64,000 nucleotides of DNA, taken from IMG/VR virus record IMGVR_UViG_3300014204_000174, positions 7,160-71,159 of that record; one strand, 5' to 3'. A program made the translations under genes and the position numbers. The notes below the pieces were generated by a model that saw nothing but the letters and a program-made list of their open reading frames with translations, was not told the DNA's origin and made no database searches. Below, piece after piece: positions 9,787 to 60,961 of this stretch (position 1 is the first letter of the stretch; each line of letters begins with the position of its first letter). Source of the stretch: a virus. Lineage: Duplodnaviria > Caudoviricetes.

Positions 9787-9864
9787 TGGTGACCCTGGTT
9801 GGATTCGAACCAACGACCTGCCGTTTATTAATCGCGCTGCTCTACCAGCTGAGCTTACAGGGCC
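9787..9864 (-). tRNA. aberrant tRNA-like gene (Ile-like, loop UUAAUAA / possible AAU anticodon)
   Basis: Intact acceptor (GGCCCUG/CAGGGUC-A-CCA), D-arm and T-arm; irregular anticodon stem and an extra nt at 8/9. Confidence 0.7.
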
Positions 9865-18670: not shown

Positions 18671-19357
18671 TTGGAAAATATAATGGATGAACTAAGAAAA
18701 AGAGCTTCTAAACTTCTTGGTGTCTACGTTGGTATCGTAGAAGATCGAGAAGATCCTGATAAGATGGGTAGAGTCAAAGCAAGAGTTTGGGGAATACATA
18801 ATGAAGAACTCCCTGTATCTAAACTACAATGGTTTATTCCTGCTTATCCAATAACCGCTGCTCAAAAAGATGGTATTGGAGATTCTGGACTTCCAGAAAT
18901 TGGATCTTCAATATTAGTACTATTTGTAGATGGAGATATAATGCAAGGTGTTTACTTTGGTGTACTTGGTAGAATAGGTGGAATGCCTAATCCAGATGCA
19001 TACTTAGAAAACACCGGTCATCGACAAATAAAAACTCCATCTGGTCATATAATTGAAACTACAGATAAAATAGTCAAAATTACAGCAGATGATGGAGCTA
19101 CTATTATTGAGATAAACAATGGAAATATTTCAGTAAAAGCTCCAAATGGAAAAGTTAGTGTAGAGGCTAAAGAAATAACTCTACAAGATGGAAGTAATAT
19201 TGGAGATGTACTCATAAATCATCAAAAATTCCTCCAGTATATACATTTACACCAGCACCCGACGGGTGTGGGCCCAAGCGGAACTGTGCTGGTAGCAACT
19301 AGTGGTCTAAAAAATAATAATGACTGGTATACAACCACTATAAAGGTGAAAAGTTAA
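18671..19357 (+). CDS. baseplate central spike (gp5/gpV OB-fold plus beta-helix, HxH apex; no lysozyme)
   Basis: GIVEDREDPDKMGRVKARVWGIH OB domain; TPSGHIIE; HQHP tip. Confidence 0.8.
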   Translation: MENIMDELRKRASKLLGVYVGIVEDREDPDKMGRVKARVWGIHNEELPVSKLQWFIPAYPITAAQKDGIGDSGLPEIGSSILVLFVDGDIMQGVYFGVLGRIGGMPNPDAYLENTGHRQIKTPSGHIIETTDKIVKITADDGATIIEINNGNISVKAPNGKVSVEAKEITLQDGSNIGDVLINHQKFLQYIHLHQHPTGVGPSGTVLVATSGLKNNNDWYTTTIKVKS

Positions 19358-20245
19358 ATGTACATTTATAAAACTACTAATTTAATAACTGGTAAAATTT
19401 ATATTGGAAAGTGTCAAAGATCTATTGAAAAAAGTATTGATTACTTTGGATCTGGAAAAGCTATCACTGCTTCTATAAAAAAACATGGTAAAGAATTATT
19501 TGTTAAAGAAATTCTTCAGGTTTGTGAAAGCATAAAAGAACTTTTTGACGCTGAAAGAGAATGGGTAATTAAGCTTGATTCCACAAATCAAGCTATTGGA
19601 TATAATATTATGATTCCAAAGAGCCATAGTTGGTCTATTTATAAAGAAATAGATCCTGAAAAATATAATTCTATAAGAAAAAAATTATCTGAGTCTGTTA
19701 AAAAATCCTATGAAAAAAATCCTTTACTTAAAGAATTAAGAAAAAATCCTAAAACAGAAAAAACAAGAAAAAAAATATCTGATGCTCTTATAGGGCATGA
19801 AGTCTCAGAAGCTGCAAGAGAAAAACTTAGACAAATAAATCTTGGAAAACCTTTATCTGAAGAACATAAAAATAATATAAGTAAATCAATAACTGGAGAA
19901 AAGAATCCATTTTATGGTAAAACACATTCTAAAGAAACAATGAAAAAGATACTTGAGACAAGAGGTAGCTACAAAGGAGAAAATAATCCTTTCTTCGGTA
20001 AAACACATTCAGAAAAAACAAGAGAAAAATTACGTCAAGCTAATCTTGGAAAACAATATTCACCTGAAGTTAACAAAAGCAAAGGACTCCCTGGAGAAAA
20101 TAATCCATTTTATGGTAAAACACATTCAGAAAAAACAAGAAAAATATGTAGTTTAAGTGCTTCTCTTCAAGCTGCTAGACGTCATGGTGATTTATCTCGT
20201 ATTGAATTTCTTGAATCTGAAATTTCTTCTCTAAGGAGTTCATAG
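19358..20245 (+). mobile_element. free-standing GIY-YIG homing endonuclease with NUMOD3 repeats
   Basis: YIYKTTNLITGKIYIG; three NPF(Y/F)GKTHS(K/E)(E/K)T repeats. Confidence 0.9.
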
Positions 20246-26289: not shown

Positions 26290-26369
26290 TGGCGCCCTCG
26301 GAAGGATTCGAACCTTCGACCATACCTTCTTTATAGAAGGCTTAGGCTCTATCACTGAGCTATAAGGGC
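26290..26369 (-). tRNA. aberrant tRNA-like gene (Arg-like D-loop and G73; abnormal anticodon arm)
   Basis: GCCCUUA/CGAGGGC-G-CCA, D- and T-arms intact; CCUUCU-AUAA-AGAAGG in place of a 5-bp/7-nt arm. Confidence 0.65.
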
Positions 26370-41315: not shown

Positions 41316-41690
41316 ATGGAAGAATTATTAGAATCTATGACTTTTAGACAATTAAGACTTTTAGAAAAAAGAATGGATGAGCTTTTTGGAAAGTCTAATA
41401 TAGATGTAGATTTTACTCAGCATTTTAAAGAGCGAGTTATAAAGAGAAATATAAATGAACCAGAACTTAAATCAATGCTTCTTAAACTTTACAGTATGCA
41501 TAGAGGTGAAATATCAAGAGATGAGTTTAAAGCTTTAGTGTTTGATGTATCTACATTCCTAAATGTTCCAATAGATGTGGAATGGAAAGAACGTAAAGGC
41601 CAATATGAACTTTATTTAATAACTGCATTTAATACGAAAGATAAAGGTAAACCAGGTGGAGGACAAGGAAAACCAATTATCAAAGTCTGA
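41316..41690 (+). CDS. hypothetical protein (FTxHFxER motif)
   Basis: VDFTQHFKERVIKRNI. Confidence 0.55.
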   Translation: MEELLESMTFRQLRLLEKRMDELFGKSNIDVDFTQHFKERVIKRNINEPELKSMLLKLYSMHRGEISRDEFKALVFDVSTFLNVPIDVEWKERKGQYELYLITAFNTKDKGKPGGGQGKPIIKV

Positions 41691-42105
41691 ATTAGATGAA
41701 GCATTAAAAAGAGCAGTAACACGAGCTCTTGAGACTGTTGATTTATTTGGTAGAACTAAAGATTTTACTGGTTGCAAAGAATCAAATGTTAATAATAGAG
41801 TTATAGATATGTTAAGAATGAATATGTATCAGATGGGTGTTAAAGATTCTGTATTATCTGTAGCTTCTAAACATTTTGATGATTCTTTAGTAGATGTAGT
41901 TATGCATAAAGAAGGAATAACTTTATTATATGAAGGAGATCCATTTGAAATTTTTGGAATAGATATAAAATTAGATAATGATAATAGAGAAATATCTTTA
42001 GAAAAATTAGTAGAAACATCTTCTTATATTAGTAATGTAACACTGTTTACAGATTATGAAGAACCTTTTATCATTAAACAAAACATAAATATTGGTTCCA
42101 GTTGA
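41656..42105 (+). CDS. hypothetical protein
   Basis: ORF track. Confidence 0.55.
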   Translation: MEDKENQLSKSELDEALKRAVTRALETVDLFGRTKDFTGCKESNVNNRVIDMLRMNMYQMGVKDSVLSVASKHFDDSLVDVVMHKEGITLLYEGDPFEIFGIDIKLDNDNREISLEKLVETSSYISNVTLFTDYEEPFIIKQNINIGSS

Positions 42106-42334
42106 GGAGGAAGTTATGAACAAAGATAAGAGTGAAGATCCTTCAAAGTTTAAAGCTAAATCTGTTTCAACAGAGAATTCTAGTAATTATAATGCTTCTT
42201 GGACTCAAAATGGTTATGTAATTTCACCAATGAATACTATTCCGGTTGATAGATGGCCATTTAAGCTTCGAGATGAGACTGATGAAGAGTTTGATGCTAG
42301 GATGGAAAAATTAAAAAATAATGATAAAAAATAG
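42092..42334 (+). CDS. hypothetical protein
   Basis: ORF track. Confidence 0.45.
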   Translation: MVPVEEEVMNKDKSEDPSKFKAKSVSTENSSNYNASWTQNGYVISPMNTIPVDRWPFKLRDETDEEFDARMEKLKNNDKK

Positions 42335-42363
42335 TTGACATTGGGAATTCTGAGTATTATATT
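42335..42363 (+). promoter_or_regulatory. class I sigma70-like promoter
   Basis: TTGACA-N17-TATATT. Confidence 0.8.
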
Positions 42364-42382
42364 ATTTATTGAAATTGAAATT

Positions 42383-42458
42383 ACCCTCGTGGCCTAACGG
42401 TGAAGGCGTCTGGCTTATATCCAGTAGATTGGGAGTTCAAATCTCTCCGAGGGTACCA
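42383..42458 (+). tRNA. tRNA-Ile(UAU)
   Basis: ACCCUCG/CGAGGGU-A-CCA; loop CU-UAU-AU. Confidence 0.85.
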
Positions 42459-42619
42459 ATTAAGTTTAAAAGTTCAATCTAGAAATAGTCTAGATTGTGT
42501 AGAATGACATTAGACACAGTTTAGAATCTTCTGAATAGATACAAGTATATGATCTGGAAAAAGACACTAAACTTTATCTAACATAATCGTAGTTAATCAT
42601 TGAAGGAGGTGATTCTGAC

Positions 42620-43732
42620 ATGGACAAGACTGAAAAAACTCAAAGAATAAAAGAACTGAAACAGGAAATTTCTGTTTTAGATCAGAAGCAAGGGAGTTTA
42701 AAAGTCTTGCTCTAATGTGCACTAAATTCTGGTTATGGTGCACTTGCGAATCCATATTTTGCTATGTATGATATTCGTTTAGCTAAAGCAATTACATATA
42801 CAGCTCAGTTAGTTACTAATTGGGTTAAACAACATCTTGAAAAATGTGAACATAAGTGCATATATGGGGATACGGATAGTTTGTATCTTTGTGTCCAAAA
42901 TCAAGTTAAGAAATTATGCTCTGAATCTGAAGTAGATTATGATTCTATTACTTGGGATGAACGCAGAGAAATGATGTATACTGTATCTAAAAAAATAGAT
43001 ATAATTGTAGCAGAAGCTTTATCAGAACTTTCAGATTACTTATGTGTATTTGAACGATGTCTACATATGAAAAGAGAACTTTTTGGATTTGCTGGAATAT
43101 GGATAAAGAAGAAAACATATTGCATAAAATTATTGGATAAAGAAGGTAAATATTGTGGTCCAGATGAGAAACCATATGTTAAGGGTTTTGATATAGCTAA
43201 ATCTTCAGCTAATCCGAAATGGATTCTTGATACTTTAGTTGAACATCTTGAACTTGTATTTACTGGAAATTCTAAAGCTGTTTATGAATTTGAAGCAAAG
43301 AAAAGATCAGAGTTCAAAGAACTTCATCCAGATGATTTTTCTTTTATACGTTCTACAACTGCTATGGGCAATTATTCTTCAGCTGAAGACAAAGGAGTTC
43401 AAGCTCATATAAAAGCAGCAATTATTTATAATGATATTGCTTCAAAAGAAGAATTTAAAAGTATATTTCCAAAAGTTTACATTGGAGACAAGATCCGGTA
43501 TTTTTATACTAAAACTCCAAATGGACTTGGAACTAATGTAGCAGGGTATAGTGTATCTGCTGATGGAAAAAGATTTTTGGATGTTTTAAAAAATGAATAT
43601 GGAATAGAACCAGATTTTGATACTCAGTGGGAAAAGATATTAATCGGTCCAGCCAGAAGACTTACTGATGCAGTTGGTTGGAATATGGATTCATTTAAGA
43701 GGAATAGTATATTTGATATTATGAGGAAATGA
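42620..43732 (+). CDS. family B DNA polymerase, C-terminal fragment (gp43B-like), interrupted by in-frame TAA at 42713
   Basis: AAGGAGGTGA RBS then ATG 42620; QGSLKVLL*CALNSGYGALANPYF; YGDTDS; KK.Y; KGFD. Confidence 0.85.
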
Positions 43733-44160
43733 TGTGGAATAAAGATAAGTATATAGATTCTTTACCTTCTGAATCAGATTATATGAGAGCAAGAAAACTT
43801 GGTTTAACAGATGGTGAAAAAAGAATAAAAAGTGGTGAACTTCATCACCCTATGTCTAGAAGGATAATGTCATTTATAGAAGAGCATGACTTTATAGACT
43901 ATAATGATTTCTTTTGTTGGAAATCTGGTGGTGATGGTGATAATGGAGAAGCTTTGATGTGGGAACTTGATGCTTTCTTTGAGTTCTTAGATGCTACGGA
44001 GAAAAAGGATAATATAAAATGTGATAAATGCGGAAGTGAAATAGATGTATGTAGTAGTCCAGATAAATCATTAAGTCTTTGTAGAGCATGTGCAGTTAAT
44101 AATGCTATTGAAGTTTTATCAAAAGAAATAGCTGAATTTGAATCAAAAGATAAAAAGTAG
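43729..44160 (+). CDS. hypothetical protein
   Basis: ORF track; GGDGDNGE motif; C-terminal Zn ribbon. Confidence 0.55.
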   Translation: MMWNKDKYIDSLPSESDYMRARKLGLTDGEKRIKSGELHHPMSRRIMSFIEEHDFIDYNDFFCWKSGGDGDNGEALMWELDAFFEFLDATEKKDNIKCDKCGSEIDVCSSPDKSLSLCRACAVNNAIEVLSKEIAEFESKDKK

Positions 44161-45091: not shown

Positions 45092-45227
45092 GGGGGCGAA
45101 TTGGATTCGACGTTAATGCTTAGCTATAGCACAGCGTGGTAGCTGAACGAGTTAAATGCGCTTGAAAACACTCGGGCTATAGTGGTTCATTGACGGACGT
45201 GGGAACCGATGCCCACCGCCTCCACCA
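45092..45227 (+). ncRNA. ssrA: miniature tmRNA-like RNA (136 nt)
   Basis: GGGGGCG/CGCCUCC-A-CCA with G3-U70; UGGAUUCGAC; P2 helices; UUAAAU-GCG resume context; GGAC-GUGGG...CCCAC. Confidence 0.75.
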
Positions 45228-45264: not shown

Positions 45265-46287
45265 ATGAAAAATGTTAAAATTTCGGTTGTAAAGTTCAAA
45301 GATTGTTGGGCTGTGTATTCATCAGATATCACAAGATTAAGGTTCGATGGAAAAGAAGCTGAACAAAGATTTAATGGTTGGTATTTTATAGATCCAGACC
45401 CAAAGAAGATTACATATGTCTTTGATTCTAAACATGGTGATAAATTTTATGTTTTAAAAGATGCATTTAAGAAATTAACATCAATGTCTATTCCACATGA
45501 GTTTCATTCAGAAACTGTAGAAACTGGAAAAATTGAATATAGTGATGATGATAAGTATGGTGAAATTTGTGTTTGGAAAGAAGAATTTCAGCATCTCAGG
45601 TTAATGTATGAGATTAAATATGATATTATCTCCGGAGGAGAGGAAGAAGTAGAACCAGAGTTCTCATTCAAAGCTGATGTAGATTTTGATTACAGAGATC
45701 CAAGAGGTGTGAAGTTTCCTATTGGAAAAAACAGAGAGATAACTAGCAGTGAAGTAATCAGACCAACTCTAGTTGAGAGTGTAATGTTTCCTGAAGTAGT
45801 GACTAAGACTTTATGAGAATCATCGCTGACATCTGATCAGATGTACAGCATTATTAGAGAACATGTGAAGAATAATATTGATCCGAAGAACGCTTTCGTT
45901 TCGAGTGACTATGATTTCTGTTTCGACGTAATGAAAAGAGTCAAATTAGCTGAACCGATGACAGAGCAGCAAAGTTATTATCCAACTTTTAAGTCTAAGA
46001 AAATGAAAGTTAGAGAAGTAACTATTACTCAAAGAAATTTCTATATATTTAGAATGACAAATGAATGCCGTAAATATAAAGGGTATAATGTTATACCAGG
46101 TGTTAAAGCTAATAATATTTTTGAATTGAAAAAGAAAGTAGATAAGCTTCTTGATGATTTAATGAAAGTTATAAATGCTCCAATAGAAGATTGTCCTCAT
46201 TGTTCTGGTTACGGAGTAATCTTTACAGGAGAAGTAAATCATGATGAGTGGTTTAAAATAATTGGAGCTGAAGATGAGGAAGTATGA
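45265..46287 (+). CDS. conserved phage protein, probably one gene interrupted by in-frame TGA at 45814
   Basis: ORFs 45265-45816 and 45841-46287 are in frame with no other stop; no RBS before 45841; SSDYDFCF motif. Confidence 0.6.
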
Positions 46288-60886: not shown

Positions 60887-60961
60887 GGTGTGAGCTTAAT
60901 GTAATGGTAGCACGATAGGATGTGGCCCTGTTAGCGTGGGCGAATCCCGCAGCGCACCCCA
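60887..60961 (+). tRNA. degenerate tRNA-His(GUG)
   Basis: G-1:C73, CCA, AUAGG-AUGUGGC-CCUGU; T-loop reduced to CGAAU; acceptor pairs 6-7 mismatched. Confidence 0.6.

Follow-up and report, generated by a model that had tools for sequence, protein, structure and literature searches.

In a 64-kb stretch of phage DNA, bases 7160-71159 of a 71-kb IMG/VR viral contig with an estimated completeness of 41% (hereafter the window, to which all coordinates refer), the gene for the C-terminal half of a split family-B DNA polymerase (polB-C, a separate gene at 42620-43732, + strand) is interrupted within the conserved motif B by 12 nucleotides (nt) that include a stop codon. These 12 nt are a genuine DNA insert. 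Judging from sequence comparisons, they are probably skipped during translation by a short programmed bypass, or stop-hop, in which the ribosome would leave a Leu codon (CUC) in front of the stop and land on a second Leu codon (CUA) behind it. Inserts built to the same rule occur at the same spot in two other lineages. We give about even chances to a broader proposal: that these belong to a natural family of 8-12-nt stop-hops in motif B of split phage PolB genes, that the family moves with a QGxxKVLL patch by gene conversion and sits at a DNA site of introns and nucleases, that the polymerase is made only by hopping ribosomes, and that the window holds the first natural in-frame stop-hop.

An insert with a stop codon in PolB motif B

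The window has a G+C content of 32%, and its replication genes are T4-like and densely packed (gp32, clamp loader, primase, SbcD), in an order syntenic with that of a 160-kb relative. The remainder of polB-C and the neighbouring genes are intact and syntenic with the relative L004, and the contig is compact. The region 42620-43732 matched the split-form family phrog_1918 with an E-value of 3e-56 (positions 46-381 of 382) and phrog_262 with an E-value of 3e-61 (positions 490-851), with one TAA inside the match. Its homology extends from motif B to the C-terminus and it has its own start ~30-40 codons before that, which places it among the split PolB C-subunits, a form found in 32 of 154 homologs. 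Neither a PolB N-terminal half nor any other DNA polymerase was found on the contig, which is incomplete at 41%.

Translation would begin at ATG 42620, which is preceded at 10 nt by the Shine-Dalgarno sequence GAAGGAGG (42602-42609, +), in a ribosome-binding site (RBS) region that is 95% conserved in the relative L002. The first open reading frame (ORF1, 42620-42712, +; MDKTEKTQRIKELKQEISVLDQKQGSLKVLL) has 31 codons, forms the N-terminal piece of the C-subunit, carries the Q and K of motif B, and aligns with the N-terminal 30-38 residues of the split homologs P0002, P0004, P0007 and P0008. The rest of the C-subunit (ORF2, 42725-43732, +) is open and keeps all invariant residues, running from NSGYG through YGDTDS (42863-42880) and KKKTY to the stop at 43730-43732. 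Across the junction, 42701-42745 reads AAA GTC TTG CTC TAA TGT GCA CTA AAT TCT GGT TAT GGT GCA CTT, so that motif B appears as Q-G-S-L-K-V-L-L-stop-C-A-L-N-S-G-Y-G with four extra codons, the first of them a stop. The insert is in frame both with ATG 42620 and with the 338 open codons that end at 43730-43732.

Sequence, frame and homolog alignment thus bear out an earlier note on this DNA, made without database searches, which had described a 12-nt stop-containing insert here and had stated that its removal restores motif B. All 256 homologs that keep motif B read K-x3-N-[SAG]-x-[YF]-G with no insert, the K-x7-N spacing of the window occurs in 0 of the 256, and 80 of 80 PolB loci in IMG/VR are uninterrupted. 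Close homologs (366-371 residues) read Q-x-A-x-K-I-L-L-N-[SA]-G-Y-G, and seven that read LKIL-LNAGYG show a four-column gap opposite L-X-C-A of the window.

We took the insert as real DNA because run X1, from which the window probably derives, has an independently assembled Logan contig with 0 differences from the window over 42100-43797 (depth 6.9). A contig from an unrelated study (run X2) lacks exactly these 12 nt, and run X3 yielded a 199-nt piece identical to 43732-43930 with no contig across the insert. No copy of the insert was found elsewhere in the 64-kb window at up to 3 mismatches, and neither the allele nor the insert had a match in IMG/VR, the JGI metagenomes or the GTDB genomes, in a search that may not have covered the records nearest to the window. 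There was likewise no DNA match to the window stretch among GenBank phages, where tblastn returned only polymerases of at most ~30% identity, all of them one-piece among the matches listed.

Re-initiation behind the stop was considered and rejected. The only in-frame ATG, at 42764, lies after motif B and, as the earlier note had also observed, has no Shine-Dalgarno sequence, so that a start there would lose the motif; a chain through TAATG and ATGTATGA would end in the same motif-less product. The elements of such a chain are present: the TAATG overlap at the stop opens an 18-codon ORF in the +1 frame (42714-42770, +), and its TGA (42768-42770) overlaps ATG 42764 (ATGTATGA), a possible termination-reinitiation route to a 322-residue product without motif B.

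The closest relative and a replaced patch beside the insert

The closest relative, P0011, is uninterrupted, reads KSLKILLNSGYG, and occurs in contigs of three samples or more. Between 42725 and the motif C codons its DNA is identical to the window at 155 of 157 positions (~99%), both differences being synonymous. In the 21 nt that adjoin the insert on its 5' side, 11 positions are substituted, with the protein conserved (AAA TCA TTA AAA ATA TTA TTA in the relative versus GGG AGT TTA AAA GTC TTG CTC, encoding GSLKVLL, at 42692-42712, +, in the window), and upstream of this recoded patch identity returns to 91-95%. This mosaic identity places the insert at the 3' border of a short patch that has been replaced, and the patch behaves as a horizontally moving module.

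The two genes also differ at motif C, where P0011 has an intein and the window has none. In the relative's locus (L002, 701-1811) the intein begins at YGDTDS|C, and its frame stops after 114 intein residues. Behind it lies a separate ORF, longer than 235 residues, whose N-terminus has the pattern CxxC...CxxC and which contains repeated KYGEEEG modules; possibly the intein is split or has been invaded, and carries a free-standing nuclease-like gene.

Inserts of the same design in two other lineages

By examining relatives whose called proteins begin after motif B, we found two other lineages of the same polB-C clade, each with its own insert at the same spot, making a set of three. The window reads AAA GTC TTG CTC, then TAA TGT GCA, then CTA AAT TCT GGT TAT GGT, an in-frame shift of 12 nt. 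The junction in L010/L011 is AAG GTC TTG CTT, TGA CAA GA, CTC AAT GCG GGA TAC GGT (shift 11 nt), and that in L008/L009 is AAA GTT TTG CTT AAT, TAG GG, AAC GCG GGA TAT GGT (shift 8 nt). All three follow one rule: a sense codon, an immediate stop, a gap of 5-9 nt, a codon synonymous with the first, and resumption of the motif. The stop stands directly 3' of the proposed take-off codon each time, as UAA at 42713-42715 in the window, TGA in L010 and TAG in L008, so that each of the three stop codons is used once. Deletion of the insert gives an exact KVLLN[SA]GYG in every case (KVLLNAGYG in L008 and L010). In these two lineages the remainder of the polymerase lies in a second reading frame, reached by the 8- or 11-nt shift; a single frameshift there was considered and rejected, as it would add three residues to the motif. 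Their codon pairs, AAU/AAC and CUU/CUC, are each read by one transfer RNA (tRNA).

Both of these inserts persist in two runs each, the L008 and L009 sequences differing by six single-nucleotide polymorphisms with the insert kept. All three insert-bearing genes are otherwise open, keep every catalytic residue, and have branch lengths like those of their uninterrupted sisters. In a tree of the C-terminal domain they fall into different subclades of one clade (support 100/100): P0013 groups with P0007, P0008 and P0164 (100/99), P0005 is sister to P0002, and the window stands on its own branch. Because of these separate placements, the three inserts appear to be of independent origin.

What the alleles have in common is the protein sequence in front of the insert. 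Q-G-x-x-K-V-L-L is found in all three insert alleles and in the uninterrupted L007, while among the 256 intact proteins only 2 have Q-G and only 1 combines it with K-V. Together with the mosaic in the window, this points to a module moved by gene conversion, or else to a shared requirement at the end of the nascent chain or in the messenger RNA (mRNA); that QGxxKVLL might be a nascent-peptide signal is suggestive only.

Selfish elements at motif B

In L092 and L093, more distant split polB genes, a group I intron lies at K-I-L|L-N-S, one codon 5' of the position of the window's insert. Both introns match RF00028 (105 bits in L092, 744-965; 90 bits in L093, 44-284), have no internal ORF and begin with an in-frame TAA. 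The gene calls at these loci are a 37-residue ORF and a protein starting MLNSGYG because the intron interrupts motif B. A further neighbourhood, that of the more distant relative P0181, is suggestive: a truncated C-gene there follows a DUF559-like gene and a 36-residue ORF and is itself followed by an I-TevI-like gene. Taken together, these sequences indicate that the motif B site is a hot spot for selfish elements. The truncated gene call of P0173 was set aside, being due to a scaffold gap and not an insert.

The window itself has no RF00028 match by cmscan, and thus no detectable group I intron core. The earlier note had also raised a collapsed intein, which we rejected: the insert is only four codons long, the inteins of this clade (P0006, P0011, P0012, P0013) are at YGDTDS, that is, in motif C, and the element that distant relatives carry here is a group I intron.

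Elsewhere in the window, a homing-endonuclease homolog (19358-20245, +; phrog_314, E-value 9e-46) directly follows, in the same frame, a baseplate hub/lysozyme-like gene fragment at 18671-19357.

Predicted RNA structure around the inserts

The earlier note had pointed out that the insert pairs with downstream sequence, and this pairing is part of a predicted irregular hairpin at 42711-42749 (+) that starts at the proposed take-off codon and the stop. Its inner stem joins GUGCACUA (42717-42724) to UAUGGUGCAC (42734-42743), so that the 5' arm consists of the stop, gap and landing codon and the 3' arm of the native GYGAL codons. Over 41 nt the fold has a z-score of -3.07, and 2 of 200 shuffled sequences fold as well. 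GTGCAC occurs at only two sites in the 64-kb window, both within this hairpin, and the fold is absent from the relative that lacks the insert (z +0.29). The other two inserts also pair with their own native flanks: in L008 there is a 12-bp hairpin starting at the stop (z -4.3), and in L010 a 7-bp stem with CUU-UGA in the loop and the landing codon in the 3' arm.

A proposed stop-hop from CUC to CUA

Under the proposed mechanism, the ribosome would translate 31 codons from ATG 42620 and pause with peptidyl-tRNA-Leu on the take-off codon CUC (42710-42712, +; assigned by analogy with CUU in L010 and AAU in L008) and UAA in the A site. The tRNA would then release its codon and the mRNA would slide by 12 nt, possibly aided by the hairpin between the insert and downstream codons, leaving the gap UAA UGU GCA (42713-42721, +) untranslated. 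Re-pairing would take place on the putative landing codon CUA (42722-42724, +), with decoding resumed at AAU 42725. The product would be a 366-residue C-subunit with a normal motif B (QGSLKVLL-NSGYG), and the peptide across the hop junction would be VLLNSGYGALANPYFAMYDIR. We infer both the hop and its efficiency, as well as any role of the hairpin and of the nascent QGxxKVLL peptide. CUC is a rare codon in the window (3.3 per 1000). As for a purpose, the inserts may destroy a site targeted by an intron or a homing nuclease, an idea already put forward for T4 gene 60.

The programmed hop that the earlier note had put forward as a candidate is now the leading explanation on comparative grounds, given the 8- and 11-nt inserts of the same rule in two relatives. 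In the comparison with relatives' polB genes that the note had called for, the insert is absent from the closest relative, and different inserts are present at the same spot in the two lineages.

Several observations weigh against a hop in the window. The two codons both encode Leu but are identical at only two of three bases, and one tRNA would serve CUC and CUA only if tRNA-Leu(UAG) reads all four CUN codons; under standard wobble rules no single tRNA reads both. In natural gene-60 cassettes the take-off and landing codons are always a one-tRNA pair, which CUC/CUA would not be under those rules. The UAAU context is a normal strong stop in this phage, where 14 ORFs end so. The gap UAAUGUGCA has no Shine-Dalgarno-like triplet (GAG, GGG, GGA or AGG) 5-7 nt before the landing codon, the nearest such element being GGGAG at 42692-42696, 25 nt upstream of that codon. 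Wider stretches around the insert have z-scores of only -1.5 to -2.2. The ORFs on either side of polB-C matched no homing-endonuclease family, be it in the window, L008 or L010. For the insert of the window the only source is one contig at ~7x depth, as opposed to an uninterrupted P0011 in at least three samples, and the contig has a second in-frame stop, in a Gad1 homolog, so that the genotype has at least one other nonsense site. Finally, the family as a whole rests on three lineages.

Alternative explanations

The insert could be a non-functional scar, produced when a cut at this intron or nuclease hot spot was mended by error-prone repair or when a group I intron was lost imprecisely, and the C-gene would then be dead or strongly hypomorphic, with the genotype surviving by complementation, through a second copy, or not at all. 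We consider this unlikely. In its favour, the group I introns at the site in L092 and L093 make breaks followed by repair plausible there, GTGCACT is shared by the insert and the sequence 21 nt downstream in a manner that fits templated repair, and a second in-frame stop lies 3 kb away in the Gad1-like gene; moreover, the insert is absent from the closest relative and known from a single low-depth contig, and a genome only 41% complete leaves room for a second copy. The shared letters also bear on a suggestion of the earlier note, that the insert is a degenerate duplication of TATGGTGCACTT: this is a possible origin of the letters, but the shared 7-mer is not significant (~0.13 by resampling). 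What tells against a scar is that random repair would not be expected to produce three independent lesions with matched codons, each restoring the motif, at the same codons of an essential gene, nor two inserts that persist in two runs each. The three genes are otherwise open, with all catalytic residues kept and branch lengths like their sisters, and the contig is compact and otherwise intact. The lesion reading gave way to the hop because two relatives carry inserts of the same rule at the same spot.

An RNA-level route, in which an endonuclease and an RNA ligase would cut the 12 nt out of the mRNA as a micro-intron, is in our estimation very unlikely. RNA repair enzymes are encoded near the gene in relatives (RtcB in L010 and L011, RNA ligase and Thg1 in L007), the insert lies within a hairpin, and self-splicing introns occupy the same site in other relatives; however, excision would not need the matched flanking codons seen in 3 of 3 inserts, cmscan finds no intron in the window, and no bacterial or phage system is known to excise 8-12 nt from an mRNA. 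Most unlikely, too, is readthrough of UAA by near-cognate decoding or a suppressor tRNA, after which the motif B helix would contain four additional residues (x-C-A-L). In favour of it are the in-frame position of the insert and the phage's tRNA-like genes with abnormal anticodon arms, but no UUA anticodon was found among the phage's tRNAs and tRNA-like genes, UAAU is the phage's own common terminator, and no homolog has the K-x7-N spacing (0 of 256). Readthrough also cannot rescue the inserts of the sister lineages, because their 8- and 11-nt shifts change the frame. Reading of UAA as Lys, an option in the earlier note, was rejected on the terminators of the window: TAA is the commonest, closing 40 of the 73 ORFs, of which 14 have TAAT. 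We regard an artefact of assembly (likewise raised there) or of sequencing as exceedingly unlikely. The insert does come from one sample at a depth of ~7, with support at the level of contigs, but two assemblers gave the same letters, with the Logan contig identical throughout the region, the 33-nt patch needs real k-mers across it, and analogous inserts are present in unrelated assemblies.

Comparison with known bypassing systems

To our knowledge, bench demonstrations of efficient bypassing are essentially confined to T4 gene 60 and, partly, phage Hau3. Synthetic stop-hops work at an efficiency of ~1%. Among gaps of the gene 60 type the shortest have 20 nt, and the take-off site is followed by a stop or a hungry codon (10.1101/2022.08.31.505936), and 10-nt gaps are known from the terminase of phage Hau3 (PMC10732093). 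Synthetic stop-hops have been reviewed, with no natural in-frame stop-hop known as of 2016, and the gap of T4 gene 60 is thought to have arisen as target-site protection in the setting of a selfish element (PMC5009743).

The logic agrees with that of T4 gene 60 and its homologs. In both cases an essential replication gene is split and its downstream piece has the insert near the start (codon 31 here, 46 in T4), a stop follows the codon of take-off (a proposed one here), the landing codon is synonymous, a hairpin (predicted here) begins at the take-off and stop codons, removal of the insert restores the conserved protein exactly, and the 5' flank looks horizontally acquired at a site targeted by selfish elements. 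However, the in-frame shift here measures 12 nt, whereas that of T4 is 50 nt and the shortest natural homolog known has 20 nt; the affected gene codes for PolB (at motif B) and not for a topoisomerase; and the window has no sequence similarity to the cassette, no adjacent HNH (MobA) gene and no Shine-Dalgarno-like triplet before the landing codon. The insert of the window is not a member of the gene 60 cassette family.

Closest in size, along with the synthetic stop-hops, is the candidate bypass in the terminase of Streptomyces phage Hau3 (PMC10732093), an essential phage gene with gaps of 10 and 7 nt, a slowly decoded A-site codon that can be replaced by UAA in E. coli, and local secondary structure that brings the landing codon close; its junction peptide was shown by mass spectrometry at one site. 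The trigger there is the rare Streptomyces codon UUA, the gaps shift the frame and a regulatory role has been proposed, whereas the window has a true stop and an in-frame gap. Synthetic E. coli stop-hops (PMC5009743) share the matched codons around an in-frame stop, the re-pairing of peptidyl-tRNA downstream and the decoding of several codons as one amino acid, but they are engineered and span 9 nt, while in the present case, a natural essential gene, a single Leu would take up 15 nt. Phage group I introns (RF00028) resemble the insert in that those of L092 and L093 interrupt the same motif and start with an in-frame TAA, yet the insert is 12 nt long and one codon further 3', with no intron core and no Rfam match.

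If the proposed hops are real, these genes would offer small and varied natural substrates for studying minimal signals of ribosome release and landing, with very short gaps (5-9 nt between matched codons) in a catalytic motif of an essential polymerase. Annotation pipelines would then systematically truncate such genes, the product called here being 322 residues long and devoid of motif B. The hops would also be another link between bypassing and the arms race of phage genes with selfish introns and nucleases.

Other features of the contig

A small conserved ORF lies upstream of polB-C both in the window (41316-41690, +) and in L008 (453-827). It has a weak, sub-threshold likeness to the T4 RegB endoribonuclease and DUF4258, with E-values of 0.045 in the window and 6e-5 (23.5 bits) in L008.

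A 136-nt miniature transfer-messenger RNA at 45092-45227 (+) scores 60.9 bits against RF00023; it has G3-U70 and a CCA end, is without a pseudoknot ring and was not called by ARAGORN. The homolog of the anti-Gabija protein Gad1 (phrog_20113) with its in-frame TGA (45814-45816) lies just downstream, at 45265-46287 (+). Gad1 of Bacillus SPbeta-like phages and an ORF of a Clostridioides phage align colinearly with it at 25-31% identity. The TGA lies in a linker of low conservation, and on either side of it the protein is otherwise conserved. The locus could be a pseudogene, a two-piece gene or a case of readthrough.

Three tRNA-like genes, at 9790-9864 (-), 26293-26369 (-) and 60890-60958 (+), pass the Rfam tRNA threshold and are reported with abnormal anticodon arms. 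The first two were considered as suppressor tRNAs and rejected, as they do not present UUA. In one arm the stem is bulged and the loop reads UUAAUAA; another combines an 8-bp stem with a 6-nt loop, UAUAAA. The second tRNA-like gene is conserved in relatives, where it is found at a loose end of a related contig from run X2.

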